Part shown: positions 3,801-27,600 of the stretch, piece after piece
Layout: every line of letters begins with the position of its first letter
Numbering within the stretch: position 1 is the stretch's first letter
NCBI GenBank assembly: GCA_965242755.1
Contig: OZ251500.1
Coordinates: 2,625,339-2,689,338 of the forward strand
DNA: 64,000 nucleotides
Origin: Dehalococcoidia bacterium
Lineage (GTDB): Bacteria > Chloroflexota > Dehalococcoidia > Lucifugimonadales > Australimonadaceae
Direction: 5' to 3'
Position numbers and translations under genes: made by a program
The notes under the pieces: model-generated
What the model was told of the DNA's origin: nothing
What the model saw: only the letters and a program-made list of their open reading frames with translations
The model's database searches: none

Positions 3801-5192
3801 GCGCGGAAGTCGCTCCCGTTGGTGCGCCTGCTCCCCGCGCTGGCCGCGCTCGGGTTCGTCGTTGGGGCGTTCGCCGCCGTCAACACGTGGGACGTTCCGG
3901 CTTACGCCTTCCTGAGCCTCGCCGCAATCGCCGTCGCGCTGCTCGTTCGGGGCGGCCCGCCGGAGCCGGTGACGATTGCGAAGGGATTGCTCGCTGCCGC
4001 ATTCTTCTGGGCCGTTCTCTACGCCGCGTGGCTGCCCTTCCATCTGAATTTCGAGGCCGCCTCGTCCGGCGTGACGATGAGTCAGTGGCGGACGGCCCTC
4101 TGGCGCTACGCCGCGATGCACGCGCTGCTCCTCTTCGCCGCCGTCTCGTGGCTCGCGGTCGAGGCGCGGCGCCTCTTCCTCGACGGCGCGGAGAGGCGCG
4201 CGCTAACCGCCGCCGTTGCGCTGCCCGCAATCGCGCTCGCCCTCTTCCTGAGCGTGGACGCGCTCCGGCAATGGACGACGGCGGCCGTCCTCGCGGCGCT
4301 CATCGCGGCGGCGATGGCGGTCGGAGCCGTTCGCCTCGCCCGGCGGAGCGAAGCCGACGCGCCGCCGCATCTGCTGCTGCTCGCCGCTCTCATCGTCGCG
4401 CTCGGCGTCGGCGTCGGCGTTGAGTTCCTGACGCTCGAGAACGACATAGACAGGATGAACACCGTTTTCAAACTCTACCTGAACGCATGGGCGCTCTTCG
4501 GCATCGTCGGAGGCGTCGGGCTGTGGCATCTCTGGGCGACGAAGGCGATTCCTTTCGGAACGCGGAGCGGTAGGGTATGGCTCGGCGCGCTTGCGCTGCT
4601 TGCGCTTGCGAGCGCCGTGTACCCCTTGCTGGGGACGCGCGCGCGGCTTGCCGACCGGTTCGATACAGGCGTCGGCGTCACGTTGGACGGGCGCGCCTAT
4701 CAGCGGTCCGCCGTCTACGGCGACCCCGGCGACCCGGACAGGGGCGCGCCGGGCGCGGAGTACGCGCTGCGGCATGACGCGGAGGCGTTGGATTTCATCC
4801 GCGCCAACATTGACGGGTCGCCCGTGTTCTTGGAGGGCGTCGTTTCCCACGCCTACCGCTGGCAACCCCGCGCGCCCCAATACGCCGGCCTGCCCGTCGT
4901 CGTCGGATGGCAATGGCACCAGATCCAGCAGCGCGGCATCGGCGGCGCGGAGCCGCAGGCCGTCCAGTCCCGCATAGCCGACGTTCGCCTAATGTACGAG
5001 ACGGAAGACACCGCGCTGTTCCTCGATCTGGCGCGAGAATACCGGGTCGAGTACGTCTACCTCGGCCCCACGGAGCGGGTGTACTTCCCCGGCCCCGGCC
5101 TCGACAAGTTCGCCGAAATGACCGGCGCGTCGCTGGATGTTTTCTTTGCAAACGAGGAGGTGACGATCTACCGCATACTGGGCGCGGGGTGA
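819..5192 (+). CDS. Large polytopic membrane protein, DUF2298 / Chlor_Arch_YYY-domain family (GT39/ArnT-like N-terminal region)
   Basis: 1457-aa ORF with many hydrophobic segments. Has the signature FINYYYFGF (YYY motif) and a C-terminal soluble domain. Coding-like GC3 bias. Confidence 0.8.
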   Translation: MSVAETANSDAAYLARPSGVWEELAWLRSRLAVAPRWAVVLPLILVVALALRLNGLDWDNGNFYHPDERSIYLRADCMHRVLTESPGWDSCQSNEFPQDEPGFPSIGAFFDKDASPLNPHWFPLGSLFIYLLVAARFLLDPFMTQVRLEDLATAGRTIAAVADTVSVALLFFLGRRLFGTGAGLLAAGFMTFTAISIQVTHFYRPESIVALLALAAFWGMLNVLERGRFRDHVVLGLIIGVTFAFRGSSIPILAPVALTYVALAWRQRERDGLEPLAPVVFRPAMLAFGAAFLAFAILQPYALLDYTKYAGDLGWETMIARTAGLVPYTLQYVGAPLTGLYELRQTIVWGLGAPLGIAAWGGLAVSAVAAFRRPRIGEWLLLSWVGVFLISVVPLFEVKFLRYVAPALPVLILLGSRWLVEAHQFAQARRRALGYAAGALIAVILAATAFYALAFVGIYRHDHPGQQASDWMNANVPAGAVVLTDNHWDEGFPNLGKFNVEQLPMYEPDTTGKVRDVAERIANADYIMAYSNRTWGSIARVPDRYPYSAAYYRALFSGELGYELAQGFTRYPTLFGVTFVHDPFTRAGVARPASIPGVETGPIALDLGYADENVVNYDRPLTLVWRNAERLSAEAISDLMLAADVVPPPERALMSDAQRAAQRAGGTWTDVFSESGPSTWAPWLVWLIAIEVIFLAALPLAARLMRRLPDRGVVLAKPLGLLLVAWLVWMGASAGLWTFSRWSVALAVLLVAAASGVVLLRNRSLIPMARRHWRAIATVEALFIGAYLAFTLIRAANPDLWHPWRGGEKPMDLAYLTAVVKSSVFPPFDPWYAGGFINYYYFGFVPIAALIRLTGIAPEVAYNLAVPLLFALTFAGAFSVAYNLAESLRRRSKLDAPPWSAAGAGIAAALLVALLANLDGAAQLLQGAWRSLGGEHFGQFDFWRSSRILSHPGEWASVTEFPFWTFLFGDLHAHMISLPFQMLAVGLAVNVVLSARKSLPLVRLLPALAALGFVVGAFAAVNTWDVPAYAFLSLAAIAVALLVRGGPPEPVTIAKGLLAAAFFWAVLYAAWLPFHLNFEAASSGVTMSQWRTALWRYAAMHALLLFAAVSWLAVEARRLFLDGAERRALTAAVALPAIALALFLSVDALRQWTTAAVLAALIAAAMAVGAVRLARRSEADAPPHLLLLAALIVALGVGVGVEFLTLENDIDRMNTVFKLYLNAWALFGIVGGVGLWHLWATKAIPFGTRSGRVWLGALALLALASAVYPLLGTRARLADRFDTGVGVTLDGRAYQRSAVYGDPGDPDRGAPGAEYALRHDAEALDFIRANIDGSPVFLEGVVSHAYRWQPRAPQYAGLPVVVGWQWHQIQQRGIGGAEPQAVQSRIADVRLMYETEDTALFLDLAREYRVEYVYLGPTERVYFPGPGLDKFAEMTGASLDVFFANEEVTIYRILGAG

Positions 5193-5317: not shown

Positions 5318-5878
5318 CTACTCGCCGAGGCGGAACGGCGGGTACTCGTCCGTCGCGAGGATGAGCATATACGCCTGCACGCGGAGCGACCAGCGCGCCA
5401 CGCCCACGACGAAGTCGAACATCCCCTGCGGGTATTTCCCGGTGAAGAGTATGGCCAGCCACGCGACGACGGTGACCGCGACACCCAAGGTTCCCAGAAC
5501 CGCGAGTAGGACGTAGTGAGGGAGCGCCAGCAGCCACTTGATCAGCGGCATGAAATTGTTGAGCCGTCCGGGGTATTCCACGTTGAGGTGAACGGCCTGC
5601 TCCTCGTCCGTCGACGGGTACTCGTCGCGCAAGAGCAGCAAGTAGGCGTTGACCCGGGCGTCGAATCGGAGCCACTCGACGTTGAAGTCGAACCACCAGC
5701 GCGGGTACTTGCCCCGGAAGAGGACCATCAGGAGCGTAGGGGCGACGATCAACTGGAGCGCCGTGACCAGCGCGGCGACCACGACGATGATCGGAATCGC
5801 CAGCGCCGGACGGAACAACGCGGTGAGCCTGTTGCGTCCGCCGCCCGGGTAGTCAACGTTCAGCGTAACGGGATGCAT
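5318..5878 (-). CDS. DUF4389 domain membrane protein (internally duplicated)
   Basis: Two repeats of the pattern (G)KYPxxxFDFxxxxxRxxxRVxAYxxLxxDEYPP(F/S) with TM helices between them. This is typical of DUF4389. Confidence 0.7.
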   Translation of the reverse strand: MHPVTLNVDYPGGGRNRLTALFRPALAIPIIVVVAALVTALQLIVAPTLLMVLFRGKYPRWWFDFNVEWLRFDARVNAYLLLLRDEYPSTDEEQAVHLNVEYPGRLNNFMPLIKWLLALPHYVLLAVLGTLGVAVTVVAWLAILFTGKYPQGMFDFVVGVARWSLRVQAYMLILATDEYPPFRLGE

Positions 5879-5988
5879 AGCGCAGCCTCCTGATGCTCGC
5901 CCCGCTCGGCGCGGCGGGAATCATAGCGCCCTTTGTCCGGCGCGATGCGGTCTAGGGGCGCCTGCGCGCGAGGCGCTAGAATCGCCCT

Positions 5989-6606
5989 ATGGGACGCTTC
6001 ACGCTGCTCATCGCCACGAACAACGCGCACAAGGCCGCCGAGTTCCGCAGGCTCCTCGCAGGCGCCGACGCCGACCTCGTCACGCCCGATGAGGCAGGCG
6101 TCGCGCTGGAGGTTCCCGAGACGGGCGCGACGTTCGCGGAGAACGCCCGCATCAAGGCGCGCGCCTTCCGCGACGCGAGCGGCCTCCCGTCGCTCGCCGA
6201 CGACTCCGGCGTCGCCGTGGACGCGCTCGGCGGACGCCCCGGCGTCCGCTCCGCCCGCTACGGCGGCGACGGGCTGGACGACGCGGGCCGCGTCCGCTTG
6301 CTGCTTTCGGAAATGGCCGGCGTCCCCGATAGCGGGCGCGCCTGCCGCTTTCACGCCGTCCTCGCGTTCGCCGCGCCCGATGGAAGCGAGGAAATGGCGG
6401 AGGGCGTCTGCGAAGGGCGCCTCGCGCGGGAGCCGTCCGGCGTCAACGGCTTCGGCTACGACCCCGTCTTCATTCTTCCCGAATTCGGGAGGACGATGGC
6501 TGAACTCGCGCCGCAGGAGAAGGACTCGGTGAGCCATCGGGGACAGGCGGCGCGGCGGATTCTCCCTCTGCTCCGCGCCGGCGACCCCGCGCAGGCCGCG
6601 CGATGA
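5989..6606 (+). CDS. rdgB: Non-canonical purine NTP pyrophosphatase (RdgB/HAM1 family)
   Basis: LLIATNNAHKAAEF..., SLADDSGVAVDALGGRPGVRSARY, GFGYDPVFILPEFGRTMAEL..EKDSVSHRGQA. Stop overlaps the moaA start (ATGA). Confidence 0.9.
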   Translation: MGRFTLLIATNNAHKAAEFRRLLAGADADLVTPDEAGVALEVPETGATFAENARIKARAFRDASGLPSLADDSGVAVDALGGRPGVRSARYGGDGLDDAGRVRLLLSEMAGVPDSGRACRFHAVLAFAAPDGSEEMAEGVCEGRLAREPSGVNGFGYDPVFILPEFGRTMAELAPQEKDSVSHRGQAARRILPLLRAGDPAQAAR

Positions 6607-8818: not shown

Positions 8819-11800
8819 TCAGCGGTCGCTGCGGCGCTCGCTGCGCTCCGTTACGACGAGGGCGCCATGCGCGTCGCGGGCTTCGTCGAACACGACGCGG
8901 CTCTTCTTGCCGCCGTGAATTTGCGGCTCCCGCGCCAGTTTGCGGCGCAGCACGTCCACAGGGCCGTTCTCATCGCACAGCGATTCCGGCAAGCCCAACA
9001 CGTCCACGAGCAGGCGGCGGTCGAGTTCCGCGCGCGCCGGGTCCTCGTCGATCTGATCGAAGGGGAGGAACCGCAGACCGCGCATCGCATCGAACGCGGA
9101 CTTGGCGGCGGCATGCTGCTCGTCCGTGAGCGCGCGCGTATCCAGCGACGGAATGTTGGGAATGCCGGTCACCGTCGTTCGCCCCCGCCCCGATTGCGTC
9201 TTGTTGGCCGTCCACCAGTGCAGCAGCAGGCCGAGCGTCGAGTTGCACCAGAGTGCGAAGGCGTATTCGTGCTCAGGGTTCTCGAAGATGACGGACGGCC
9301 AGGCAACGCCCCCGATGCAGGGGCGCTCCGTCATCGCCGCGATAAGCGATTGCGCGTTGAACTGGAAGTCGAGGTTGTAGTGGGCTCGAGCGGCAGTCGC
9401 CTGGATCCGCTCCGCTTCCTCCGTCGTCCTGGGTTCTCCTTGCGAATCCGGCGGGATAACGAGCGTTCGTTCACTCGTATTGTCGTGATTCCACAAGATG
9501 GGATAGGTGGGGACGGCGCCCGCTTGGAGTTTCCGCACAACGAAAGCGCCGCGCGACGCCGACGTGGGACTCCCAACCAAGCGATGAACCGGCCCCGACC
9601 GCGCGATGTTTCTTAGCGGCGTGATGGGCAACGCCGTCTTGGGCGTGGCGGGACGCCCGATATGGGGAAGGGCGCCGCGCGAGAGATGCCATGCGGCTTG
9701 CGCCAGATCGCCGTCGGCGACGCCAACGAGCGGCCATGGGCCGGTTTGGGGAAGGGGAGCATCGGCGGCGATTCCGTAGAAGTTCGCCGTTCGCGGACGC
9801 GCTCCAATAGTGACGACGGATAGGCCGAGGTCGCCCTCCAACGCGCGCAACTCGCCGGATTCGCGGATGCGGAGAATCTCGCTTGCGAGCAACTCCGCCT
9901 CCGCCGCGGACCTCACCTGGCGGCGCAGCGCAATGAACGTTCCCCGCGGCTCCGCCGCCGGCGTTCCCTTCCGCGCCACCACCAAGCATTCCGCCATGCC
10001 CGTGTCGGCGGAGAAGGATCGGTCGAACGACCCCGCCCCTGAGATGGTCACGACGATGATGTCCGTGTAGCGTTCGCGCCATTGGGAGCGAACGCTCTCC
10101 CACGACCCTCCGCTCATTGCGCTGAGCGGGAGCACGAGGGCTATCGCTCCGTCGGGGCGCGCCTTGCGCTCCGCTAGTTCCACGAAATGCGACGCCAACC
10201 CCGCGTAGTCGTTGGACGGGCTGTCCTCGGTGAGCATCTTCACCGCGTCCGACATCGCCCTCTGATCCTCCGGGCTCGTCTCGAACGCCGCGTAGGCGGG
10301 ATTCGGGACGTTCGCGTGCGCCGCCTCGTGGTTGGTTGGGCGCGTGAACGGAGGATTCATAATCACGAGGTCGAACTTCCCGTGCCCCACCCGCGACACG
10401 AGGTCGCGCACCTCCTCCGGCGCCCGCCCGCCCGACGTGACCGCCGCCGCGTGCCCGAGCAGCCCCGCCTGCACGTCTCCCCGAAGCAAGTCGAGCGAGC
10501 CGACAGTCACCGTCTCTTTCGGCTTGCCGTTCCCATTCCCGCCGTTCCTCCCGTTCCCGTTCCTCTTGCCGTTGCCGTTCGACCGCAGGTAGCGTTCGCC
10601 GTAAGGCATAGTGAGGAGACACTCGCCGTCGAACGGCGTGTCCGGGTGGCTGCCGGCGAGCATCGCGGCGGTGAGGTGCACGTTGATGTTCAGCACGTCC
10701 AGTCCGACGAGGCCGTGCTTCATCATCGGCGCGTGCAGCGCGGCCGGGTCGCCCCCGTGGAGTTCGTGGAGCAGCGAGAGGCGCTGATACGCGGCGGAGA
10801 GGAGCGTCCCCGTCCCGCATGCGAAGTCGCCGACTTGGAGGCTCGCCAGCGTCTCCGCGTCGCCCCAATCGGCGCCGCCTGGGGCGCGGGCAGCGGGGAG
10901 CGCAAGCCCGGCGAGCAGGGCGGCGGCCTCAGGGCGCGTGTAGAAGGTCGCGAGGAACTTGCGGTCGGCGATGAGCCGCTGAAACACGATGCCGGTGAGG
11001 TCGTGCGAGCGCGTCACGCCGCCGACGATCAGCGAGAGCGCGGCGCCCCATAGCGCCGCGAGCGCGCCCGCCGCCGTCGCCGGGGGCATCCGCCGCAGCA
11101 TCTCCTTCGCCGTCCAGAAGATCGGCCAGTAGTTGACCGCGAGGATGCGCTCCCACTCCGCGCAAAGTTCCTCCGGGTCAAACGTCTCGCTCCGAACGCC
11201 CTGCAGCAACGCGGGCATCCGAACGGAGCGCGTAGGCCCGCCCGGCTCGTCCGCCACCTGAAACTCCGCCGCCGCAAGCGCGCTATGGAAAATGAGCGCA
11301 TTCATCAGCACCGTCATCGCCATCCGCCGCGTCTGCCCTGCCGCGTCGTCGTACTGCCCCAGGATCCGCGCTATGTCCGCCCCAAGTTCGCCGCCGTAGC
11401 GATGCCGCCGCGTGAACGCGTCCGCCGCGGCCTCAACGCCTTGCTCAAACGCTTGCGCGAGCGCCTCGACGCGGGGCGCGGGCGCCGCCGCCCGATGCGT
11501 CAGCATCGCCAAGTCCCGCACGCTCCCCCGCACCCAGCCGTCCTCCGGCAGCCGCTCCGGCGGCTCCGCCGCGCGCCGCGTGTAGAGCGCGTACTCCAGC
11601 GCGTCCGTCCGGTCAAGCGCATCCCGCAAGCGCGCCCCGTCGAGATACGTGAGGTCGTCCGGGTAGACGAGCGCAATGGCCGTCTCGATGACGAAATCCC
11701 TGCCGGACACTTTGCGCCCGAGCCGGGCTATCGCGTCGCGCTCGGCGCTCGCGTGGTCGGCGCGCTCGGCCTCGATGACGACGGGCCAGCCGCTCGCGTC

Positions 11801-11941
11801 CTCGACGAGGACGTCGGGGCGGCCGCCGCCGTCGAGGACGCTGCCGGTCTGTTCGGCGCGGGCGCGCCAACTGCGGCGCAGGCGGTCGAGCGCCTCGCCG
11901 AGGGCGGCGTTGAGGGTGGGCTCATGAGTTGGGCCTGGCAT
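8819..11941 (-). CDS. MmeI-like (type IIG/IIL-architecture) candidate: N-terminal PD-(D/E)xK-like nuclease region, gamma-class N6-adenine DNA methyltransferase, C-terminal specificity-like domain
   Basis: 1040 aa. SAM motif I is VGDFACGTGTLL. Motif IV is NPPF (DLVIMNPPFTRP, + strand ~10341-10360). N-terminus has RPDVLVED...VVIEAER, resembling a restriction-nuclease core. C-terminal third resembles TaqI/MmeI-type TRDs. No neighbouring R, S or BREX genes. No obvious SD at the ATG. Confidence 0.65.
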   Translation of the reverse strand: MPGPTHEPTLNAALGEALDRLRRSWRARAEQTGSVLDGGGRPDVLVEDASGWPVVIEAERADHASAERDAIARLGRKVSGRDFVIETAIALVYPDDLTYLDGARLRDALDRTDALEYALYTRRAAEPPERLPEDGWVRGSVRDLAMLTHRAAAPAPRVEALAQAFEQGVEAAADAFTRRHRYGGELGADIARILGQYDDAAGQTRRMAMTVLMNALIFHSALAAAEFQVADEPGGPTRSVRMPALLQGVRSETFDPEELCAEWERILAVNYWPIFWTAKEMLRRMPPATAAGALAALWGAALSLIVGGVTRSHDLTGIVFQRLIADRKFLATFYTRPEAAALLAGLALPAARAPGGADWGDAETLASLQVGDFACGTGTLLSAAYQRLSLLHELHGGDPAALHAPMMKHGLVGLDVLNINVHLTAAMLAGSHPDTPFDGECLLTMPYGERYLRSNGNGKRNGNGRNGGNGNGKPKETVTVGSLDLLRGDVQAGLLGHAAAVTSGGRAPEEVRDLVSRVGHGKFDLVIMNPPFTRPTNHEAAHANVPNPAYAAFETSPEDQRAMSDAVKMLTEDSPSNDYAGLASHFVELAERKARPDGAIALVLPLSAMSGGSWESVRSQWRERYTDIIVVTISGAGSFDRSFSADTGMAECLVVARKGTPAAEPRGTFIALRRQVRSAAEAELLASEILRIRESGELRALEGDLGLSVVTIGARPRTANFYGIAADAPLPQTGPWPLVGVADGDLAQAAWHLSRGALPHIGRPATPKTALPITPLRNIARSGPVHRLVGSPTSASRGAFVVRKLQAGAVPTYPILWNHDNTSERTLVIPPDSQGEPRTTEEAERIQATAARAHYNLDFQFNAQSLIAAMTERPCIGGVAWPSVIFENPEHEYAFALWCNSTLGLLLHWWTANKTQSGRGRTTVTGIPNIPSLDTRALTDEQHAAAKSAFDAMRGLRFLPFDQIDEDPARAELDRRLLVDVLGLPESLCDENGPVDVLRRKLAREPQIHGGKKSRVVFDEARDAHGALVVTERSERRSDR

Positions 11942-12029
11942 AGGGAGAGTCTACACGAGCGCCCCGCCCCGCCCGCTAGGGGCGATTGTCGCGCGGGGGA
12001 AGGGGAGTTGCCCACGCGCGGTGCGCCTC

Positions 12030-12320
12030 CTGAACGCGCCCTCTGCGACATCTGCCTATTGCGCGGCGCCGCATCCGTTCCCTACGATGAACCGCGTCCA
12101 ACCGATGCGCGAGACAAGAGGAAGCCAATGAAGACCACGAGAAGCATGCGAACGGGATCGGCAAGCGCGACGGCCAATGTCTCAAATTGTCTCAAAATGT
12201 CTCATTTTGTCTCATTTCCGTCTCAAAACGTCTCATTAGCGTCTCAAACCGTCGCGCGCCGAACCGCCCGAAATACGGCCAACACCAACAAAAGAGGCCC
12301 CGATGACCCGAAATGAGACA
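12030..12320 (+). promoter_or_regulatory. Conserved leader/operator element, copy 1: promoter-like hexamers + 7 phased GTCTCA repeats + inverted repeat at start codon
   Basis: TTGCGC (12059-12064), 18-nt spacer, TACGAT (12083-12088). GTCTC cores at 12179, 12189, 12199, 12209, 12220, 12230 and 12241. Inverted GAGAC at 12315-12319. An inverted copy with the same layout, differing by point substitutions and one missing repeat unit, lies at 27340-27600. Confidence 0.6.
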
Positions 12321-12374
12321 TCCCCCAGGGCAAATTCAGCAAGCCCGCAACCTGACCGAAAACGAGGCCATACG

Positions 12375-13637
12375 ATGAACCACCCTCCCCTGAACGTGAA
12401 CCGCGAGCGCATGGACGCCGACGTCCGCCGCCTCGCCGAATTCACCGACCCCGCCCTGCCCTACACCCGCCGCGCCTTCTCCCCGGAGTACGCCGCCGCC
12501 CGCGAATGGCTCGCCCAGCGCTTCCGCGACGCCGGCCTCGTCACGCGCGTCGACGCCGCAGGCAACCTCATCGGACGGCTCGGCCCCAGAGACGGCCCCG
12601 TCCTCATGCTCGGATCCCACATCGACACCGTCGAGGCGGGCGGACGCTTCGACGGCGTCGTGGGCGTCGTCGGCGCGCTCGAAATCGCCCGCCGCATCCG
12701 CGAGACCGGCGCCGCGCTCGCGCATCCCCTCGAAATCGTGGACTTCGTCTGCGAAGAGCCCACCATCGTGGATATGAGCCCCCTCGGCAGCCGCGTGATG
12801 GCAGGCGACATCACCGCCGAAATGATCGCCGCCGCATACGCCCCCTCCGGCGAGCCGCTCGGCGAGGCGATAGCCCGACTCGGCGGCGACCCCGCCCGCC
12901 TCCATGAGGCGCGCCGCAAGCCCGGCGAAACGCTCGCCTACATGGAATTGCACATCGAGCAGGGCCCCGTTCTCGAGCGCGCCGGAATGGACGTCGGAAT
13001 CGTCACCGTCATCGCCGCCCCTTGCCGCGCGGTCGTCTCGCTCGTCGGCGTCGCCGACCACGCGGGCGCGACCTCGATGGCCGACCGCCGCGACGCGCTC
13101 GCGGGCGCCGCGGAACTCATCCTCGCCGTCGAGCGCGCCGCGAGCGCCCCAGACGTCGCGCAGGAAAGCGTCGGCACCGTCGGCTTCCTCCGCGTCAGCC
13201 CCAATATGGTCAACGTCATCCCCGGACGCGCCGACCTCACGGTGGAGGCCCGAAGCGCGCAGAGCGAGGCGCTCCTCTGGGTCCGCGAGGAGATTGAGCG
13301 TTCGCTCCATGAAATAGCCGCCCGCCGCGGCCTCGACGCGGCGATTGAATGGCGCCACTTGGAGGAGCCCGTCCCGATCCCCGTCGAAATGCAAGAGATC
13401 ATTGCGGAATCCGCAACCGATTTGCGAATGCGCGCAATGCGCCTCCCAAGCCGCGCATCCCACGACGCCGCCCGCCTCGCCCCCGTCGCTCCCGTCGGAA
13501 TGGTCTTCATCCCCTGCAAAGACGGGCGCAGCCACTGCCCCGAGGAATGGGCGGACGCGGACGACGTCGCCGCCGGAGCGGAGGTCCTGGGCCGCGCCCT
13601 CCTCCGACTCGACGCCCAGCATCGCCCTTCCCGTTAA
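12375..13637 (+). CDS. Zn-dependent M20-family amidase (hydantoinase/carbamoylase-type; allantoate amidohydrolase / N-carbamoyl-L-amino-acid hydrolase-like)
   Basis: LMLGSHIDTVEAGGRFDGVVGV, metal-ligand context DFVCEEP, MELHIEQGPVLE, PSRASHDAA, FIPCKDGRSHCPEE. The start is set at MNHPP. The ORF is open from 12303, whose ATG belongs to the repeated leader element. Confidence 0.85.
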   Translation: MNHPPLNVNRERMDADVRRLAEFTDPALPYTRRAFSPEYAAAREWLAQRFRDAGLVTRVDAAGNLIGRLGPRDGPVLMLGSHIDTVEAGGRFDGVVGVVGALEIARRIRETGAALAHPLEIVDFVCEEPTIVDMSPLGSRVMAGDITAEMIAAAYAPSGEPLGEAIARLGGDPARLHEARRKPGETLAYMELHIEQGPVLERAGMDVGIVTVIAAPCRAVVSLVGVADHAGATSMADRRDALAGAAELILAVERAASAPDVAQESVGTVGFLRVSPNMVNVIPGRADLTVEARSAQSEALLWVREEIERSLHEIAARRGLDAAIEWRHLEEPVPIPVEMQEIIAESATDLRMRAMRLPSRASHDAARLAPVAPVGMVFIPCKDGRSHCPEEWADADDVAAGAEVLGRALLRLDAQHRPSR

Positions 13638-13689: not shown

Positions 13690-13833
13690 GGCGCAACAAC
13701 CGCCCGCGAAGCGGGAACTCGGGCGGCGCGAAGCGCCAACCCCCCTCTCCCTCTGGGAGAGGGGCCGGGGGTGAGGGTTGCCCCGCGTAGGCGGGAATCC
13801 AGTCGGCGCAAGCGCCAACCCCCCTCTCCCTCT
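13690..13833. repeat. Cluster of REP-like palindromic modules (CCCTCTCCCTCTGGGAGAGGGG hairpin; CCGCGTAGGCGGGAATCCAGTCGGCGCG module)
   Basis: Perfect short hairpins (ATTCCCGC-GTAG-GCGGGAAT type). The same modules recur at ~15.05-15.41, 20.73-20.86, 22.98-23.02, 27.12-27.30, 35.74, 37.67-37.93, 39.40-39.55, 54.07-54.10, 57.10-57.31 and 62.76-62.96 kb. Confidence 0.85.
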
Positions 13834-15047
13834 GGAGACCTTTGCATAACTGAGCGTTTCGCGCGATTGGGCAGTTCCGCGCCGCTCCGATGGCCATTTC
13901 GCCCCGTCTAGCCCCCCATAGGCCGCCCTCATCCCTCCCTGCTCGCCCCGTTTTCGGGGCTCCGCAGGGCCTCTTACCCCAAACGGACGCACTACCCCCT
14001 ACGCAATCGCGGCGCCCCGCGCCTCGCACAACCCGTCCGCGCGCCGCAAGTTGTACGCCATAACCTTGAACATCGCCTCCGCAACGTTCTTCTCCAGCCC
14101 CACGTACCGCGTCCGCCAGTACCCGTAACTCCGCTTCAGCGTCCCAAACACCCCTTCGACAGGCGCCCGAACCTTCGAAACCAGCGCGTTCCGCCTCCGC
14201 TGCCAATACGGCAACTCCGCCTGGTTCTTATGCGACCGATGCATGATCCGGTCATTGATGCCGCGCGCGCGTAACCGCTTCCGACGCTCCTTCGACTCAT
14301 ACGCCTTGTCCGCGTACACCGCCTTCTCGTCCCCCATGATCAGCGCGTCAGCGACGTCCGTGTCCGCCACGTTCGCAGGCGTCAACTCCACTCCGCGAAC
14401 CAGCCCGGAGACGCCGTCCATCCCGATGTGCAGTTTGTAGCCGAAGCGCGACTTCTTCCCCTTCCGCGTCCACGCGGCGTCAGGGTCCGTCTTGCTCCCC
14501 GCGCCCGCCTCCGACCCGGGGCGACGCGCCTGCGCCTCGATCACCGACGCGTCGATCAGCGTTCCCTTCTTCACCAGCAGCCCCTTCTTCTCCAACTGGC
14601 GGCCCACCTCCTCGAACAGCCGACGCGCGAGCCCCCGCTCCGCGACCGCTTTCCGAAAGCGGCTGATCGTCGAGTGGTCGGGAACCGCGTCCTGGAGCGT
14701 GAGCCCCGCGAACCGGCGGAACGACAGCCGGTCGGTCACCGCCTCCTCTATCGCGACGTCCGAGGCGTCATACCACTGTTGGAGGATGATGATTTTCACC
14801 ATCGTGAGGGGCGGGTAGGCGGGGCGGCCTTCAGTGGATGCGTAGAGGCCGCTGACCTGCTTGGCGACTTTGGGCCAATCGATCATCTCGTCGATGCGGT
14901 CGAGTTGGTCGTTGCGTCCGATGTGGTCGGGGACGAGGACGTCGATGAAGGAGGGTTCGCTGGTCTTGCGATGCATAGCAATCTCCTGGCGTTGGGGTGT
15001 GTTGCGGCCAATTGTGCGCGATGTCGAGGAGTTATGCAAAGGTCTCC
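13834..15047 (-). mobile_element. IS5-family insertion sequence (1214 bp) with 18-bp terminal inverted repeats GGAGACCTTTGCATAACT
   Basis: IRL is at 13834-13851. IRR is at 15030-15047 (reverse complement identical). It has a single DDE transposase ORF. It is inserted in the loop of a CCCTCTCCCTCT/GGGAGAGGG palindrome, with flanking TCT / TCA. Confidence 0.85.
13999..14976 (-). CDS. IS5-family DDE transposase
   Basis: 326 aa from ATG 14976 (MHRKTSEPSFIDVL...). Has an N-terminal DUF4096/HTH-like region (RPAYPPLTMVKIIILQQWY..SD), FGYKLHIGMD, VYADKAYES and the C-terminal VEGVFGTLKRSYG motif. The 5' extension to 15240 in the track is read-through into repeats. Confidence 0.9.
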   Translation of the reverse strand: MHRKTSEPSFIDVLVPDHIGRNDQLDRIDEMIDWPKVAKQVSGLYASTEGRPAYPPLTMVKIIILQQWYDASDVAIEEAVTDRLSFRRFAGLTLQDAVPDHSTISRFRKAVAERGLARRLFEEVGRQLEKKGLLVKKGTLIDASVIEAQARRPGSEAGAGSKTDPDAAWTRKGKKSRFGYKLHIGMDGVSGLVRGVELTPANVADTDVADALIMGDEKAVYADKAYESKERRKRLRARGINDRIMHRSHKNQAELPYWQRRRNALVSKVRAPVEGVFGTLKRSYGYWRTRYVGLEKNVAEAMFKVMAYNLRRADGLCEARGAAIA

Positions 15048-15146
15048 TCAGGGAGAGGGCAGCCGCGAAGCGGCGGGTGAGGGTTGCCTGCCCGCGTAGG
15101 CGAGAATCCATGCGGCGCGCAAGCGCCAATCCCGCCCTCTCCCTCT

Positions 15147-15291
15147 GGAGACCTTTGCATAACCTATCGTCATTCCCACGTAGGCGGGAATCCAGTCGGC
15201 GCGCAAGCGCCGCTCCTCTCCTACGTAAGCGCCGCGTCATTCCCGCGAAAGCGGGAACCTACTGGGGCAGAGGAGTTATGCAAAGGTCTCC
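15147..15291. mobile_element. MITE derived from the adjacent IS5-family element (145 bp, same terminal IRs, TCT target duplication)
   Basis: GGAGACCTTTGCATAAC at 15147 and its reverse complement ending at 15291. The interior consists of REP hairpins only. It is flanked by TCT/TCT inside the same palindrome type that the full IS occupies. Confidence 0.75.
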
Positions 15292-15535
15292 TCTGGGAGA
15301 GGGGCCGGGGGTGAGGGTTGCCCCGCGTAGGCGGGAATCCAGTCGGCGCGAAGCGCCAACCCCCTCTCCTTCTGGGAGAGGGGCCGGGGGTGAGGGTTGC
15401 CTCATTCCGTTAATAAAAATGGCGTAAATTCGTAATGAAAACGCTTGATTCCGCTATTCAAGCGTCGTATACTGACATCGTCGGCGGCTGAGGGCTGCCG
15501 GAGAACGAGCGGAGAGCGGAGAAAGGACAGAGGAG

Positions 15536-17688: not shown

Positions 17689-18918
17689 ATGGTTAGCGTC
17701 AAAACCTGCGGGCTCATTGCGGCGCTTTTCCTGCTAGCGGCATGCATCAACACGCCGTCGCCAGCCAATTCGCCCACCAGCGAACCCACGCCTACCCTTT
17801 TGCCTTCCGGTGACTTCCTGCCCACCATTTCGCCTATGCATGAACTTCCTTCATCCTTCAGCGAAGCGACCACGCTTAGCGCCGGCGAATTCCATACCTG
17901 CGCGCTCCGTCCGGGCGGATATCCTGTGTGTTGGGGCTGGGATCTGTACGGGCAATCTTCGCCTGCAGCGCCTCATAAGGCGCAGAGCGTTGCGGCAATT
18001 ACTGCAGGAGGAGCGCATACGTGCATGGTTTTTTCAGATGATTCATTTTTCTGCAACGGCCCTTATTATTATGCTTACGCTTCGCGCCCCGGAAGGTTTG
18101 GGCATTATCGTCAATGGCCCGGAGACCCGCAACCGTTGGAAATCAGCACGCCGCCTAGCAGTCAACGGTTTTTCACGGTGAGCAGCGGCCGCAACCATGC
18201 GTGCGGCATCCCGCTTCCCCCTGGTTCGGATCCATCGGATCCGAAGGTAATCTGTTGGGGCGGGAATTCGCATGGCGAAGCGGCTCCGTACTTCTATATG
18301 GAAGGAATAAAAGCGGTAAGCAGCGGCGGGGATTTCACTTGCGCGCTGCGTTTCTCCGACAGCAAGCCGGTGTGTTGGGGTGAGGCGTACTGGGCGTATA
18401 GCCGAATAGTTGACGGCCATTTTGATCGTTCCTCTGAGCCGCTTCGCTGTCCGCCGAGGAACATCAGGGTTATCAGCCCTTTGTGCGATGAAGCCTTGGA
18501 ACTGACGGGGCCTGGCAGCCCGGAGTATCCTCCCGATGACGAGCATTTCGGGGCTATCAGCAGCGGCGGGTCTCATGTCTGCGCGCTGCGTCTCAAAACC
18601 GATGCTCCGGTCTGTTGGGGATCTAACGCGTGGGGTCAAGCGTCGCCGCCTGAGGACGAGCGATTCGCGGCCATCAGCAGCGGCAGCTTTCATACCTGCG
18701 CGCTGCGATTCGACGGGACTACGGTGTGTTGGGGCGACGACCGCTACGGCCAGGCGTCGCCGCCTGAGGGCGAGCGGTTCGCTGTCATCGACGCCGGTGG
18801 GGGGCATACTTGCGCGCTGCGGTTCGACGGGACTCCTGTTTGCTGGGGGATAGACGGTCACGGCCAAGCGTCGCCGCCTGAGGGCGAGCGTTTCGCGTTG
18901 TCCTTAGGGAGGAGCTGA
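17689..18918 (+). CDS. RCC1-repeat (regulator of chromosome condensation-like beta-propeller) lipoprotein
   Basis: Lipobox LLAAC. At least six repeats of GGxHxCAL(R)...PVCWG(x)xxxGQ(A)SPP. Confidence 0.85.
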   Translation: MVSVKTCGLIAALFLLAACINTPSPANSPTSEPTPTLLPSGDFLPTISPMHELPSSFSEATTLSAGEFHTCALRPGGYPVCWGWDLYGQSSPAAPHKAQSVAAITAGGAHTCMVFSDDSFFCNGPYYYAYASRPGRFGHYRQWPGDPQPLEISTPPSSQRFFTVSSGRNHACGIPLPPGSDPSDPKVICWGGNSHGEAAPYFYMEGIKAVSSGGDFTCALRFSDSKPVCWGEAYWAYSRIVDGHFDRSSEPLRCPPRNIRVISPLCDEALELTGPGSPEYPPDDEHFGAISSGGSHVCALRLKTDAPVCWGSNAWGQASPPEDERFAAISSGSFHTCALRFDGTTVCWGDDRYGQASPPEGERFAVIDAGGGHTCALRFDGTPVCWGIDGHGQASPPEGERFALSLGRS

Positions 18919-20726
18919 TGGTTCACATCATGCGAATGTATGCGTTGGCGGGCTGCATCGCGCTGCTGGGAGCGCTGGCTTGCGGCGGCGGGGAGCAGGC
19001 GCCGCAAGCGTCGGACTTGCCTTGCGCGAGCGAGGATGCGTCCTGCGCTCCGCGGGACGTGAGCGGTGTGGATGTCATTGGCGGGGGCGCATCGCATGGG
19101 GCGGCGTTTGGCCTGCCTCCGGACGCGCCTAGCGTGGAAGGCGTGCTGGAGAAGGGGCCCCGCGAGTCCGGCCAAGCCCCTGTGCATATCGCAATCCGAG
19201 GCATAGCTCAATCCGAGTCTGTCCGATGCGACTGGCACAGCGTCGTCCGGACCTTGGATTACCGCGAGAATGAAATACGCTTCTGGTTGGCCATTGACGA
19301 GGACGAGGCGTTGCCGGCTCCAAGCGAAGTGGAACGACGGCTAATGTCGCATGTGAACGGAATGCGCGCCGACCACCGGCCTGAGTGGACGGCTTGGGCC
19401 TCCGCGCTCGCCAATGGAGGCGTTTCTTCCGAGTACAACAGGCTGAAATGCTATGCTGACTACGCCGTTCAAGGCTATGTTCTCGGCAACGGACCGCGCG
19501 CGCTTACGGTGGCTTATGACAGACACGAGCGAGGCCCCTCCTACGGTCTGTACAGTCGCGCGCATGCGGCCGGGGCTTACCGCGGGGCGGCCAAACTCGG
19601 CGAAGCGGAGCATGCGACTGCGCTGGCGGAGATGGCTTATGAAGCCGCAGCGGAATTGAAGCAGGAGATTGGGTCTCGTCAGAGCGTCGTGTTTCTCACG
19701 CCAATGGGCGCGTTCGGCCCTGTCGCAGTCGAAGCATGGCAAGCAGTTGAGCAGTGGGATTTGCAACGAGCCGATGACGGGACGGTCAATGCCGTTCGCT
19801 ATGGCGCTCGAGAGGGGGATAGTGAGCAAACGCAAACGCTTGTCAACCTGCAAAGGCGCGTTACAACGGCGGCGGGAAGCGACGCTTTCGCGGGGAAGCG
19901 CATCGCCAACGCGAGCGGACTCGCGCAGTACTACCGAGACATCGGCGCCTACGGCGACATCACGCCCGGCGACGGCGAAACGGCGACGTTCACGCCGGCG
20001 CAGCCGCCTCCGAAGTGCGGCTCCGCGGTGGCGGATCACGCGGCGAATCCGGGCCTTGTTCAGGACTGCATGGCGCTGCTCGCGGCGAAGGACGAGTTGC
20101 GCGGAACGGGGGCGCTCAACTGGAGCGAAAGCCGCGCCATCGCCGATTGGGACGGCGTGAAAACGACGGGAACGCCCGCGCGAGTGACGCAGTTGCGAAT
20201 CGTGGACGGACGCCTAACCGGAACGCTCCCGGCGTCGTTGGGCAAACTGCCCGCGCTGACGCGGCTGTTTCTGAACGGGGGCGAGTTGACAGGCGCGATC
20301 CCGCCGGAGTTGGGCGACCTCGCGGCGCTGGAGCAGTTGCGCCTGAACGACAACAAGTTGACGGGGAGCATCCCGGCGGAGTTGGGCGGCCTAGCGAATC
20401 TGCGCGAGTTGTGGATTTCGGACAACGACCTCACCGGGTCAATCCCGTCGGAATTAGGGAGCCTGAGCAAGTTGGAGGTCTTAAGTCTGCTGAACAACGG
20501 CCTCACGGGCTCGATCCCGGCGGAGTTGGGAAGCCTCGGCAAGTTGACGCAATTGAGCCTAAGCAACAACGCGCTCAAGGGAAGCATCCCTGCGGAGTTG
20601 ACGAACTTGCGGAGCCTAGCCTGGCTGCGCTTAGGCGGCAACGCCCTAACAGGCTGCATCCCATCGCCTCTGCGAAGCGTCGCCGACCAAGACATCCACC
20701 GCCTCCGCAACCTCGCGGAGTGCTAG
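18918..20726 (+). CDS. Lipoprotein with unknown N-terminal domain and C-terminal plant-type leucine-rich repeats
   Basis: Signal/lipobox LLGALACGG. The C-terminal ~200 aa has an LRRNT-like cap (DCMALLAAKDEL..ALNWSE...W.GV) plus eight 24-residue repeats LxxLxLxxNxLTGSIPAELGxLxx. Start overlaps the RCC1 stop (TGATG). Confidence 0.85.
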   Translation: MVHIMRMYALAGCIALLGALACGGGEQAPQASDLPCASEDASCAPRDVSGVDVIGGGASHGAAFGLPPDAPSVEGVLEKGPRESGQAPVHIAIRGIAQSESVRCDWHSVVRTLDYRENEIRFWLAIDEDEALPAPSEVERRLMSHVNGMRADHRPEWTAWASALANGGVSSEYNRLKCYADYAVQGYVLGNGPRALTVAYDRHERGPSYGLYSRAHAAGAYRGAAKLGEAEHATALAEMAYEAAAELKQEIGSRQSVVFLTPMGAFGPVAVEAWQAVEQWDLQRADDGTVNAVRYGAREGDSEQTQTLVNLQRRVTTAAGSDAFAGKRIANASGLAQYYRDIGAYGDITPGDGETATFTPAQPPPKCGSAVADHAANPGLVQDCMALLAAKDELRGTGALNWSESRAIADWDGVKTTGTPARVTQLRIVDGRLTGTLPASLGKLPALTRLFLNGGELTGAIPPELGDLAALEQLRLNDNKLTGSIPAELGGLANLRELWISDNDLTGSIPSELGSLSKLEVLSLLNNGLTGSIPAELGSLGKLTQLSLSNNALKGSIPAELTNLRSLAWLRLGGNALTGCIPSPLRSVADQDIHRLRNLAEC

Positions 20727-25215: not shown

Positions 25216-27057
25216 CTACACCGCGCACTCGCCCTCTCCGCGCTCCACCTTGTAGAGGATCGTCTTCCCCCAGTCTATGTAGGAGTCGAGGTTCTCCTTG
25301 TTGAGCGCGCCCACCTCGCGGTACTTGGCGGCGATCTCCTCGAACGGCGCCGTGCCGGAGCGGTCGACGAAGTCGTTGAACGTCTCGCCGTCCGTCCGGC
25401 TGGCCTGGTAGTGGGAGAGGACGTCGTCGAGGAAGGCGGGGACGCGCTTGGCGGGCACCTTGCTCTTGACGCGGTGGCCGAACCGCGCCGCGTCCTGGTT
25501 GCCGTAGTTGCCGGCGAGGAACACCTCGTAGGCGGGCGCCTGGTTGCCGTCGCCCTTCATCGCCGCGCCGTGAAAGCCGATGTTGGCGATGTGATGGCGC
25601 GAGCATCCGTTGGGGCAGCCGCTGACCTTGACGTGCAGATTCTTGACGAGCGGGTCGTCCGCGCCGTAGTCGCGGATGCTCTTCCGCAGCGCCTCCGCGA
25701 CGCCCATCGAGGAGGTGATGCCCATCTTGCAGCTGTCCGTGCCGGGGCAGGAGACGACGTCGGTGATGGAGTTGGCGCCGTCCTCGGCGAGGCCGATGGC
25801 CTTGAGCGCCGTCCAAACGTCGTGCAGGCGGCCCTCCGGAACCCAGCGGTAAAGCAGGTTCTGCTCCGTCGTGGCGCGGACGCCGCCCGCGAACTTCCGC
25901 GCGATCTCCGCGAGCGCGGGGAACTGATGCGCGTAGATGTCGCCGAGCGGCAGCGTGACGTAGACAATGCAGTAGCCGTCCTGCCGCTGCGGGCGGACGT
26001 TGGACTCGCGCCACGCGAGGAACTCCGGCTCGTCGAGGGAGGGGTCGGCGGGGACGGGCGCCGGCGGCTGATCGATCATCTCCGGGGGCAACTCCATCCA
26101 GGGGGAGGGATCGAAGTCGGCGCTCGCCCAATCGCCCTCCATCTCCCTCTCGACCTCGGCGCGGAAGGCGTCGATGCCGACGCGGTCGACGTAGAACTTG
26201 ATGCGGGCGCGCATTCGGTTTTTGCGGAGTTCGTCCGTCCGGTGGAACACGCGAATGGCGGCCTCCGCGACCTTCAGGTACTCCGCGACGGGGACGAATT
26301 CGTAGAGCGTCCAGGCGAGGCGCGGCATTATGGACGTGCCGCCGCCGATGCGGATCTCGAAGCCCTTCTCCGGCGGGCTGCCGTCTTCGAGGTCGCGCAG
26401 TTTGGGAATGAACGCAAGGTCGTGGATGTCGGCCACGACCTCGTCGTCGCCGCCGCTGGAGAAGGACGTCTTCCATTTGCGGGGGAGCGCCTGCGTGTAC
26501 TCGTGGCGGAGGAAGTATCGGGCGTAGGCGGCGAGGTAAGGCGCGACGTAGAAGGGCTCCTCCGGCTTCACGCCGGAGAGGGGGTCGCCCGCGACGTTCC
26601 GCACCGTGTTGCCGCACGCCTCGCGGGTGACGAGCCCGGCTTCGCCGAGGATCCGCATCACGTCGGGCGTGTCGGCGAGCGGAACGAAGTGGATCTGCAT
26701 GTTCTCGCGCGTCGTGACGTGCCCCTTCTTGAGGGGGGCGTGCTTGGCGACGACCTCGCCGAAGGCGTCGAGGTGGTCGGCGGTGAGGGCGCCGCCGGGG
26801 ATCTTGATCCGCATCATCTGGACGTCGGGCTGGCGCTGGCCGTACACGCCTCGGACGAGGCGGTACATAATGAACTGCTCTTCGCTGGGCCACTCGCCGT
26901 TGAGGAAGCGGGTGGCTTCCGTCTCGAAGTCGTCGGCTTCCTCCGGGAGGTAGGGGAGGACGCTTTTGGCGTAGTCGTAGGTTTTCTTTTCCGCCGGGGA
27001 TTTGACGCCCCTAATGATGGGGCCTGCGGGCGCGGTGACGGGCGCGGTGGTGGTCAT
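25216..27057 (-). CDS. sir: Ferredoxin-dependent sulfite (or nitrite) reductase hemoprotein, siroheme/[4Fe-4S]
   Basis: SCPGTDSCKMGIT and VSGCPNGCSRHHIANIGF cluster/siroheme-binding motifs. Duplicated NIR_SIR architecture. ATG at 27057 with AGGAG SD. Confidence 0.9.
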   Translation of the reverse strand: MTTTAPVTAPAGPIIRGVKSPAEKKTYDYAKSVLPYLPEEADDFETEATRFLNGEWPSEEQFIMYRLVRGVYGQRQPDVQMMRIKIPGGALTADHLDAFGEVVAKHAPLKKGHVTTRENMQIHFVPLADTPDVMRILGEAGLVTREACGNTVRNVAGDPLSGVKPEEPFYVAPYLAAYARYFLRHEYTQALPRKWKTSFSSGGDDEVVADIHDLAFIPKLRDLEDGSPPEKGFEIRIGGGTSIMPRLAWTLYEFVPVAEYLKVAEAAIRVFHRTDELRKNRMRARIKFYVDRVGIDAFRAEVEREMEGDWASADFDPSPWMELPPEMIDQPPAPVPADPSLDEPEFLAWRESNVRPQRQDGYCIVYVTLPLGDIYAHQFPALAEIARKFAGGVRATTEQNLLYRWVPEGRLHDVWTALKAIGLAEDGANSITDVVSCPGTDSCKMGITSSMGVAEALRKSIRDYGADDPLVKNLHVKVSGCPNGCSRHHIANIGFHGAAMKGDGNQAPAYEVFLAGNYGNQDAARFGHRVKSKVPAKRVPAFLDDVLSHYQASRTDGETFNDFVDRSGTAPFEEIAAKYREVGALNKENLDSYIDWGKTILYKVERGEGECAV

Positions 27058-27119: not shown

Positions 27120-27300
27120 GTTGCGCCCTGCGCCCCGCCCTGACCGCGAAAGCGGAAGCCTACCGAACGCGAAGCGCCAATACCAGCCTCTCCTTCTGGA
27201 GACCTTGCTTCTGGAGACCTTTGCATAACCTACCGTCATTCCCGCGTAGGCGGGAATCCAGTCGGCGCGACCGCGCCGACTGGAGGCTGCTGCAACGAAG
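27120..27300. repeat. REP-like modules plus solo IS5-type inverted-repeat copy (GGAGACCTTTGCATAAC at 27213)
   Basis: Has the hairpin CATTCCCGCGTAGGCGGGAATCCAGTCGGCGCG and a duplicated CTGGAGACCTT. It lies between leader copy 2 and the sir start. Confidence 0.8.
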
Positions 27301-27339
27301 GGGAGCGCCAGGAGTTGGCGGTCGGTGAGTTCGTCGCCG

Positions 27340-27600
27340 GTGGGCGTCTCATTTTGGGTCATTGGGGCCTCCTTTTTCCGTGTTGGCCTTGTTTCGGGCG
27401 TTTCGGCGCGCGACGGTTTGAGACGCTAATGAGACGTTTTGAGACAGGAATGAGACATTTTGAGACAATTTGAGACATTGGCCTTGCGCTCCTCTCCGTT
27501 CGCGCTTGTCGCCCGCCCTTTGTTGGGGTTTGGGGGCGTGATGGATCCATCGTAGGGGCGGGGTTGGCGGTCGCGCAAGGGGCATGTGTCGCAGTTGCGG
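27340..27600 (-). promoter_or_regulatory. Conserved leader/operator element, copy 2 (inverted relative to copy 1), upstream of sulfite reductase
   Basis: On the minus strand: TTGCGC (27573-27578), 18 nt, TACGAT (27549-27554). Six GAGAC cores on the + strand at 27420, 27431, 27441, 27452, 27462 and 27472. A complementary GTCTC lies at 27346-27350, just after the ATG at 27362. Confidence 0.6.

Follow-up and report, generated by a model that had tools for sequence, protein, structure and literature searches.

Phased GTCTCA arrays before an amidase and a reductase gene of a Dehalococcoidia bacterium, probable orphaned binding sites of a small-terminase-like protein

A 64-kb stretch of DNA from a Dehalococcoidia bacterium (contig OZ251500.1; called the window throughout this text), whose protein relatives likewise point to Dehalococcoidia/SAR202-like Chloroflexota, contains, in front of the gene for an amidase, a row of seven short direct repeats that follow one another at one turn of the DNA helix, and a second, inverted copy of this row stands in front of a gene for a nitrite/sulfite reductase. 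What could such an array be, and which molecule would read it? The units of the array are probably DNA binding sites for the helix-turn-helix (HTH) domains of a protein resembling the small subunit of phage terminases (TerS-like, Pfam family PF13022), sites that have since been orphaned by the loss of the gene encoding that protein. Judging from the sequence, both copies in the window appear to be gene-less relics of a module composed of a promoter, a repeat array and a gene start.

Copy 1 of the array (12179..12246, forward strand) consists of seven GTCTCA units, each followed by three to four A/T nucleotides, with the cores starting at 12179, 12189, 12199, 12209, 12220, 12230 and 12241 and spaced by 10, 10, 10, 11, 10 and 11 bp (mean, 10.33). 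A re-reading of the sequence confirmed these seven cores as they had been given in a first-pass annotation of this DNA. Copy 2 (27419..27476, minus strand) has six GTCTCA units spaced by 10, 10, 11, 10 and 11 bp (mean, 10.40). The pattern GTCTCA-N4-GTCTCA, with one mismatch allowed, was found seven times in the window against 0.12 expected, a count reached by none of 100 shuffled sequences, and all seven matches were confined to the copy 1 array and the inverted copy 2. In a scan for arrays of any 5-mer, with at least four units at a period of 10-11 nt, copies 1 and 2 were the sole arrays in the 64 kb, and none appeared in 20 Markov-simulated windows. The single GTCTCA hexamer is not over-represented in the window (20 observed vs. 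20.3 expected), and thus the signal of the array lies in its phasing. The helical phasing of direct repeats at 10-11 bp, already noticed at first reading, is non-random by pattern count, shuffles and simulated windows. A search of a genome collection for GTCTCA-N4-5 repeated three times gave at least 120 loci in many phyla, which among the listed loci were mostly simple tandem repeats or chance matches, so that the scan provides no clean census; it also yielded two loci, L032 and L087, that are discussed below.

Among relatives of the amidase, the whole module is kept in L128/L129 (amidase identity 98%) and L130/L131 (93%), always in the same order: a promoter-like box, about 85 nt, seven units, a conserved spacer, a Shine-Dalgarno sequence, and AAATGAGAC. 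The mean spacing of the array is 10.67 bp in L128 and 10.50 bp in L130, so the unit number and phase that the first-pass annotation wished to see kept are indeed retained in these close relatives, with seven units in both and mean spacings of 10.5-10.7; the four homologous arrays (copy 1, copy 2, L128 and L130) together span 10.3-10.7 bp. The cores themselves have changed. They read (C/G)GCTCA in 7/7 units of L128 and are a mixture of GCCTCA, GTCTCA and CGCTCA in L130, leaving CTCA plus an A/T run as the invariant core among the window, L128 and L130. Between the window and L128, identity is 51% in the array, 79-88% in the non-coding flanks and 97% in the amidase gene, the array thus diverging much faster than its flanks. 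In L132 (amidase identity 76%), forward GTCTCA, GTCCCA and GTCCCA are joined by inverted TGGGAC, TGAGAA and TGAGAC immediately 5' of the gene. In L134 (82%) and L133 (75%), the promoter-like box stands directly before the amidase and there is no array. The array is recurrent before the amidase yet, because of L133 and L134, not obligatory in its control region. The initial description of the array as an amidase element was right in that the phased array is genuine; it is not amidase-specific, as it is missing from L134 and as the same module precedes the unrelated reductase gene. In L133, the span 3745-3860, upstream of the amidase and downstream of an AAA_25 gene, carries another set of direct and inverted repeats, GGATGCC twice followed by GGCATCC.

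The identity of the possible reader comes from what lies behind the module. The open reading frame (ORF) after copy 2, beginning MTQNETPTGDELTDRQLLALPF..., is the truncated N-terminus of a family of HTH proteins of about 135 aa. The assignment is less firm for this relic than for the intact members described below: it shares 14/26 identities with the family protein P0256 (BLASTP, pairwise E = 6e-8), and a hidden Markov model of the family built without the window sequence retrieved it at E = 0.0077 among 10,383 ORFs. This truncated TerS-like gene (27279..27362, minus strand; 28 codons, MTQNETPTGDELTDRQLLALPFVAAASS) holds an inverted unit, AAATGAGAC, at 27346-27354, and REP (repetitive extragenic palindromic)-like repeats then break the frame. 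Copy 1 shares merely the first codons (MTRNET) before homology ends and is thus regarded as the same module with a larger deletion. Its relic (12303..12326, forward strand; ATG ACC CGA AAT GAG ACA, recognizable by the family N-terminus MxQNxT) retains about eight codons and lies, as a fusion, some 50 nt before the start codon of the amidase. The inverted AAATGAGAC lies at 12311-12319 within it, downstream of the array, as had been stated before, and the stretch of about 290 bp that was thought to be purely non-coding therefore includes, at 12303-12326, the remnant of another gene's start. The arms of the inverted-repeat pair I1 (12188-12326 and 27339-27477) show 87% identity (complementary) between copies 1 and 2, and the homology of the two copies stops abruptly just past TGAGAC, at about 12326.

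The shared remnant also bears on a host-regulator explanation, in which an OmpR/PhoB-type or other direct-repeat binder would co-regulate amidase and reductase as part of a nitrogen/sulfur regulon. Direct repeats at 10-11 bp are typical of the head-to-tail binding of OmpR/PhoB proteins, the spacing observed here fits such operators, and amidase and reductase are both assimilation enzymes. Since the two copies share the remnant of the TerS-like gene start, they point to duplication of a module rather than to operators that arose by convergence. No response-regulator gene was seen beside copy 1 or copy 2, the amidase of L134 does without the array, and relatives of the reductase (L121-L126; 78-85% identity) have no GTCTCA array. 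The control region of these relatives contains a promoter, a Cys-rich mini-ORF and a terminator-like hairpin instead of an array, on which grounds the nitrogen/sulfur-regulon idea was rejected; hardly any credence is left for it. The leaders in question (L121, 5840-5990; L122 and L123, about 5830-5990; L126, about 5830-5960) include an extended -10 element (TGCTATACT/TGCTATGCT), a Cys-rich mini-ORF (MCACCCRP*, MRSCCCWS* or MVTCSCCCWT*) and a GC-rich hairpin with a T-run. They look like a cysteine leader-peptide attenuator, which would argue for an assimilatory sulfite reductase. The reductase of the window (ATG at 27057, minus strand) is without a Cys leader. Upstream of the 85%-identity reductase of L121, the span 5663-5735 comprises the promoter-like box known from the window, then a REP insertion, and then AA(T/C/A)G(G/A)(A/G)C in about seven units with a period of 10-11 nt. 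These units may form a comparable array that has another core and is oriented like TGAGAC.

Several lines connect the gene behind the module with small terminases. The L135 protein P0241 scored 33.8 bits on PF13022 (HTH_Tnp_1_2), above the curated cut-off of 27.9, and for four members compared with PHROGs, every match was to 'terminase small subunit', with E from 1e-10 to 1e-6. Searches by tblastn matched the annotated TerS of a Clostridium phage and, via L032, genes of Streptococcus satellite phages. The family gene is found directly upstream of a large terminase gene in L032, a Planctomycetota prophage, in L141, whose large-terminase ORF scored 40.8 bits on Terminase_6N, and in L148/L149, the loci L141 and L148/L149 all being IMG/VR contigs. 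At E <= 1e-10, the family amounts to 873 clusters at 50% identity. One Dehalococcoidia locus, L087, was found by the DNA pattern alone and proved to contain a 91-aa HTH ORF (MRQIET...LTDRQLSVLPHLL...GRATLYRW); a metagenome search with the protein alignment returned L135-137 (MRQNETRKAANLTKKQLQALPYLVASP...VSRATLYRWMEDPEF), and further family members begin with MxQNET-like residues. The Chloroflexota-type subfamily was not recovered from IMG/VR. Literature searches (TGAGAC with terminase; HTH_Tnp_1_2; SAR202 prophage terminase) gave nothing relevant.

The repeat units recur at the starts of the family genes themselves. In L135-137, AATGAGAC occurs three times across the ATG. L087 has eight forward units followed by three TGAGAC units that overlap the start of its HTH ORF, and L151 has two forward GTCTCA units followed by CGAGAC/TGAAAC/CGAGAC over the ATG. 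L032 carries TGAGAC three times about 20 nt before the ATG, and L236, a viral contig of 39% GC, also carries TGAGAC three times. The spacing of the units is exactly 10 in all of these loci. A triple TGAGAC on or just before the family start codon is hence found in Chloroflexota, in Planctomycetota and in a low-GC viral contig. The existence and the conservation of the array are shown, as is its physical association with the gene family across phyla.

These intact starts weigh on the idea that the array acts as RNA, as proposed in the first-pass annotation, with transcribed GUCUCA(UUU) units pairing with the (AAA)UGAGAC at the start of the ORF or being read by a repeat-reading RNA-binding protein. 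A conserved promoter-like box lies about 95 nt upstream of the array, the minimum-free-energy fold pairs one GUCUCAUUUU unit with AAAUGAGAC, and a consensus fold contains a helix of about 9 bp in 3/4 homologues. The leader nevertheless folds no better than chance (z = +0.88; 161/200 shuffles fold at least as well), and in L128 the seven cores have turned into GCTCA while TGAGAC is unchanged, leaving a G.A mismatch uncompensated. The helix that joins a unit to AAAUGAGAC carries no double changes and is disrupted in L128, a comparison of four sequences with low power. The intact genes of L135, L032 and L236 have TGAGAC three times and no forward units with which it could pair, a period of 10.3-10.7 nt fits the DNA helix and is meaningless for RNA, and the product of the motif-linked gene is an HTH DNA binder. 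In Rfam, there were no gathering-threshold matches in the window and none up to E = 1 for 11950-12450, in keeping with the earlier remark that this is not a described riboswitch or attenuator; around copy 2, the matches were sub-threshold alone and fell on REP sequence. A logic of the TRAP or Csr type, also suggested earlier, does not agree with units of (G)TCTCA plus A/T at a 10-11-nt period without GGA or GAG periodicity, since TRAP reads GAG/UAG triplets with 2-3-nt spacers and CsrA reads GGA in hairpin loops. An RNA leader has little chance of being correct, and of the two possibilities first offered, that of a DNA operator proved the better one.

The DNA reading is further suggested by an imprint on the protein. 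Among the N-termini of 45 diverse members, the third residue is Q in 35, the fourth N in 33 and the sixth T in 31; the fifth is one of E, V, G, D and A in 43/45, all of them specified by G-initial codons, and the whole spells CAAAATGnnAC. Because the fifth residue almost always has a G-initial codon, the conserved entity is this DNA string and not the peptide; the MxQNxT residues fall in a region predicted by the structural model to be disordered. It thus appears that the DNA motif dictates the N-terminus of the family, MxQN(E/D/G/V/A)T, with which it overlaps. The fifth residue tracks the central dinucleotide of the site, and each lineage may in this way advertise its own operator core in the peptide.

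The association of phased arrays with HTH genes was assessed in 240 loci chosen by the DNA pattern alone, by means of the recognition-helix motif (S/T/G)(R/K)xT(L/F/I)(Y/W)R(W/R/Y), of the SRATLYRW type. The motif was found 12 times within 400 bp of the arrays, whereas flanking DNA of nine-fold greater length contained it four times, which amounts to a 27-fold enrichment (Fisher p = 1.3e-9); for five cases that had not been seen before the motif was defined, a Poisson p of 1e-4 was obtained. The proteins belong to several families, namely TerS-like proteins, NtrC/Fis-type activators, HTH_17/excisionase-like proteins of Bacteroidota elements and a sigma/ArpU-like phage activator, which hints at a shared rule of helix-to-hexamer recognition across protein families. 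In unrelated phyla, phased GTCTCA/TGAGAC arrays lie within 400 bp of genes with (I/V)SRATLYR(W/R/Y) in L007, L012, L037, L013, L029, L198, L246, L197, L209 and L222.

Put together, the loci suggest the layout of an intact element. It would comprise a promoter, then optional forward (G)TCTCA units with A/T runs at one-turn spacing, a conserved spacer, and finally inverted units (AAATGAGAC), between one and three in number, lying across the ribosome-binding site and the first codons of the gene for the protein itself. The TerS-like protein, as an oligomeric ring, would present its HTH motifs about one DNA turn apart, dock on successive units and wrap the intrinsically bendable DNA. Units on the start codon would then repress the gene's own promoter or start region, an autoregulation, and with a large terminase at hand the site might also mark DNA for packaging. 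If a cognate protein still came from another place in the genome or from an infecting element, it should occupy the array and act as a roadblock or repressor for amidase and reductase, blocking read-through; otherwise the arrays would be inert, and a present-day regulatory or packaging role at the amidase is speculative.

This proposal of ring docking was made because the layout matches the pac region of SPP1/SF6 and because the HTH motifs of small-terminase rings are reported to stand about one B-DNA turn apart. In small-terminase rings, adjacent HTH motifs are separated by about one turn of B-DNA, and the SPP1 pac site has direct repeats that span promoters and the gene start, with A/T runs suited to wrapping (Greive et al., PMC4737164). 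As in the SPP1/SF6 pac site read by G1P, the window copies and their intact relatives (10.0-10.7 bp) have direct repeats over a promoter and a terS start on A/T-phased bendable DNA, and the array-linked gene belongs to a TerS-like HTH family. The array described here is far more regular than that of SPP1/SF6, with six to eight hexamers in strict 10-11-bp phasing and inverted units on the start codon; moreover, the Chloroflexota members have no known cleavage site or large terminase, and the gene of the window is gone. A stand-alone TerS-like gene with a recognition sequence beside it is also known from satellites of the PICI (phage-inducible chromosomal island)/SaPI (Staphylococcus aureus pathogenicity island) type, whose small terminases divert packaging to a pac site of their own; the similarity of L032 to Streptococcus satellite phage genes is a further likeness. 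As a difference, genes for an integrase, a primase or other hallmarks of satellites were not seen beside the Chloroflexota members.

Other repeat-built sites resemble the array less. The pac site of phage P1 consists of about seven hexamer copies in two groups at the start of the pacA region, flanking the cut site; these hexamers are Dam sites (TGATCA/G), regulated by methylation and not strictly phased. P1 pac is thus likewise a hexamer-built signal at a gene start, but its protein family is a different one and its hexamers are methylation-regulated Dam sites. R1 parC/ParR and pSM19035 omega have short direct-repeat arrays near a promoter, cooperative binding and autoregulation of the adjacent gene, and a ribbon-helix-helix partner of that kind had been considered in the first-pass annotation. 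Their ribbon-helix-helix binders are encoded with partition ATPases, whereas here the array is followed by a truncated TerS-like HTH gene; the genes near the arrays encode an MmeI-like enzyme, the amidase, a short-chain dehydrogenase and the reductase, and no partition genes are among the neighbours, so that this partner does not fit. The MraZ operator has direct repeats at 10-bp spacing and is read by a ring-shaped oligomer. It shares with the array short direct repeats at a distance of one helical turn, placed before the gene of the binder itself, and the multimeric ring as reader; it differs by an unrelated protein fold (SpoVT/AbrB-like), usually just three repeats, and a fixed context in the dcw operon. 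The array belongs among the iterated HTH or pac-type sites, which are elements of a known kind, and is an undescribed variant of them, whose particular features are the strictly phased hexamers, the units imprinted on the protein N-terminus, the stand-alone Chloroflexota genes and the orphan arrays before host genes.

A number of observations weigh against binding by a TerS-like protein. The Chloroflexota members L087, L134, L135 and L151 stand alone and not beside a large terminase, and two of the four Chloroflexota genes examined are damaged, L087 (946-1221, minus strand) by an in-frame stop and L134 (442-805, forward strand) by a frameshift; 'terminase' may describe ancestry and not present function. 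The 64-kb window contains no intact family gene, no terminase and no other phage structural gene, and upstream of the distant viral relatives L141-L150 there are no exact periodic 5-mer arrays. The enrichment of the HTH motif includes kin loci (L197/L209 and several Bacteroidota elements), and because some loci are related the count overstates their independence. The AlphaFold2 monomer is all-helical and of low confidence (pLDDT 68.5, pTM 0.37), and Foldseek searches of PDB and BFVD with this weak model as query gave no match below E 0.8; a sequence search of PDB returned merely a HEAT-like motif resemblance in the C-terminal helices. Finally, the reading implies sequence-specific recognition, unlike the isolated DNA-binding domain of SF6, which binds with little sequence specificity (Greive et al., PMC4737164), so that strict recognition of a hexamer is not a given.

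A related account has the same origin and a different end: the arrays would be decaying leftovers of a destroyed mobile or phage-derived gene, functionless now, and their fast concerted change would be explained by slippage of tandem repeats together with gene conversion. The associated gene is destroyed in both copies, the family genes of L087 and L134 are pseudogenes as well, the number of units differs between copy 1 (seven) and copy 2 (six), and the array is 51% identical to that of L128 beside an amidase at 97%. The amidase relatives L134 and L133 lack the array, and gene-less arrays are also present in other Dehalococcoidia loci (L062, L068, L071 and L106); it seems common for the gene to decay while the array survives. 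Random decay is, on the other hand, expected to blur phase and core, and the amidase lineages of the window, L128 and L130 retain exactly seven units, a phase of 10.3-10.7 bp and the core CTCA plus A/T despite heavy turnover, while in the more distant L132 the set of three direct and three inverted units before the gene shows matched core changes, GTCCCA with TGGGAC. That seven units and their phase have persisted through a sequence change of 49% argues mildly for continued use, although homogenisation by slippage or gene conversion could yield the same result. That the arrays are inert is possible but, on this balance, unlikely.

Less likely still is that Chloroflexota (Dehalococcoidia/SAR202-like) genomes encode a stand-alone TerS-derived HTH protein that wraps DNA, with cognate arrays dispersed over the chromosome, part of them next to the gene and many orphaned, and that the orphan arrays are functional, either as chromosomal pac-like entry points for a helper phage, a satellite or a particle resembling a gene transfer agent, or as the co-opted regulon of this protein, which would repress host metabolic genes by wrapping DNA close to their promoters. 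As pac-like entry points, they would lead to the packaging and mobilisation of the adjacent host genes, amidase and reductase, and if the arrays function in either way, the fast concerted change of the cores would represent a switching of specificity between protein and site.

The remaining parts of the two copies comprise a promoter-like box, a spacer and the genes that follow. The box of copy 1, recognized by its conservation (CTGCGACATCTGCCTATTGCGCGGCG..GTTCCCTACGATG; 12043..12089, forward strand), contains TTGCGC (12059-12064) and TACGAT (12083-12088), separated by an 18-nt spacer, and that of copy 2 lies at 27548..27594 on the minus strand. The 47-nt consensus, CTGCGACA..TTGCGCG-N14-CCCTACGATG, is met with in the window at 12043-12089 (+), 27548-27594 (-) and 57340-57390 (+), more weakly at 34492-34522 (-), and in the relatives L121, L128, L130 and L134; it precedes the array-less amidases of L133 and L134. 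The earlier placing of the array behind a promoter stands insofar as a conserved promoter-like box does lie upstream; the TTGCGC/TACGAT pair itself fails a strict sigma70 consensus scan, which returned 0 sites for it. From its conservation and position alone, the box is plausible as a promoter, perhaps one typical of the lineage or else a mobile promoter module. Dispersed as it is in this genome and in relatives, the box often adjoins REP-like repeats. The conserved spacer of copy 1 (CCGTCGCGCGCCGAAnCGCCCGAAA...; 12247..12302, forward strand) is 79% identical to that of L128 and ends in a Shine-Dalgarno-like AAAAGAGG at 12291-12298; the spacer of copy 2 (27363..27418, minus strand) has a Shine-Dalgarno-like AAAAAGGAGG.

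The gene behind copy 1 encodes an M20 N-carbamoyl-amino-acid-hydrolase-like amidase (12375..13637, forward strand; Pfam Peptidase_M20), with homologues up to 98% identical. Its ORF had been taken to begin at ATG 12303. Because the homologues are 418-420 aa long and L130 has no counterpart of that ATG, the true start is most likely ATG 12375. A conserved upstream ORF or translational coupling was also rejected, the frames from ATG 12303 and from the second ATG (12313 in the window) differing in the window, L128 and L130. Behind copy 2 and the REP insertions lies the ferredoxin-type nitrite/sulfite reductase (25216..27057, minus strand; Pfam NIR_SIR and NIR_SIR_ferr). Look-ups of the exact amidase and reductase proteins of the window gave no match.

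Copies 1 and 2, as 12172-12326 and 27339-27483, form an inverted repeat, the two copies facing each other across 15 kb that include the amidase, an IS5 transposase, RCC1/LRR-repeat proteins, a short-chain dehydrogenase, HEPN and TIR-like genes and the reductase. This segment could be inverted if the copies recombined with each other. The copies were rejected as terminal inverted repeats of a 15-kb transposon, as their sharp homology boundary lies inside and the fuzzy one outside; such a transposon is also unneeded, L128 appearing collinear with the window. The window as a whole contains ordinary chromosomal genes, restriction-modification and defence-type genes, the IS5 transposase and many REP-like repeats. 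The latter are composite and palindromic, built from the modules ATTCCCGCGTAGGCGGGAAT, TTATGCAAAGGTCTCC and GGGAGAGGG, and lie at 13700-13860, 15020-15400, 20720-20880, 27140-27280, 57137-57300 and 62810-62950, one of them interrupting the copy 2 relic. Defence-type genes lend the window the character of a defence island (8819-11941 (-), 23459-23866 (+), 24780-25151 (-), 35882-37438 (-) and 37873-39192 (-)) and include the MmeI-like enzyme, a HEPN protein, a ThsB/TIR-like protein, an N6_N4 methylase fused to HNH and a D12 methyltransferase. The MmeI-like enzyme had weak PADLOC matches to mad2 and to a type II methyltransferase. A link of the element to a defence system through PADLOC was considered insufficient, the similarity of the TerS-like family to mad1 being weak and limited to the HTH and that of the MmeI-like gene to mad2 likewise weak. 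A 300-nt direct repeat is present at 37916-38215 and 39529-39828, and a 114-bp tandem repeat (2.3 copies, 79% matching) at 18637-18897, inside the RCC1/LRR-type repeat-protein region.

For the amidase, little follows from this: what lies upstream of it is a rearranged mosaic and not a new riboswitch. DNA recognition by small terminases is still debated, and if the proposed reading is true, the one-turn hexamer array would provide a concrete DNA substrate for testing it. It would also teach a lesson for annotation, as a conserved peptide such as MxQNxT can be the shadow of an overlapping DNA site. For the Chloroflexota, a phylum with, to our knowledge, almost no experimentally known phage biology, the stand-alone terminase-like genes and the orphan arrays of marine and subsurface members may, on the same condition, mark satellites or transduction hot spots.

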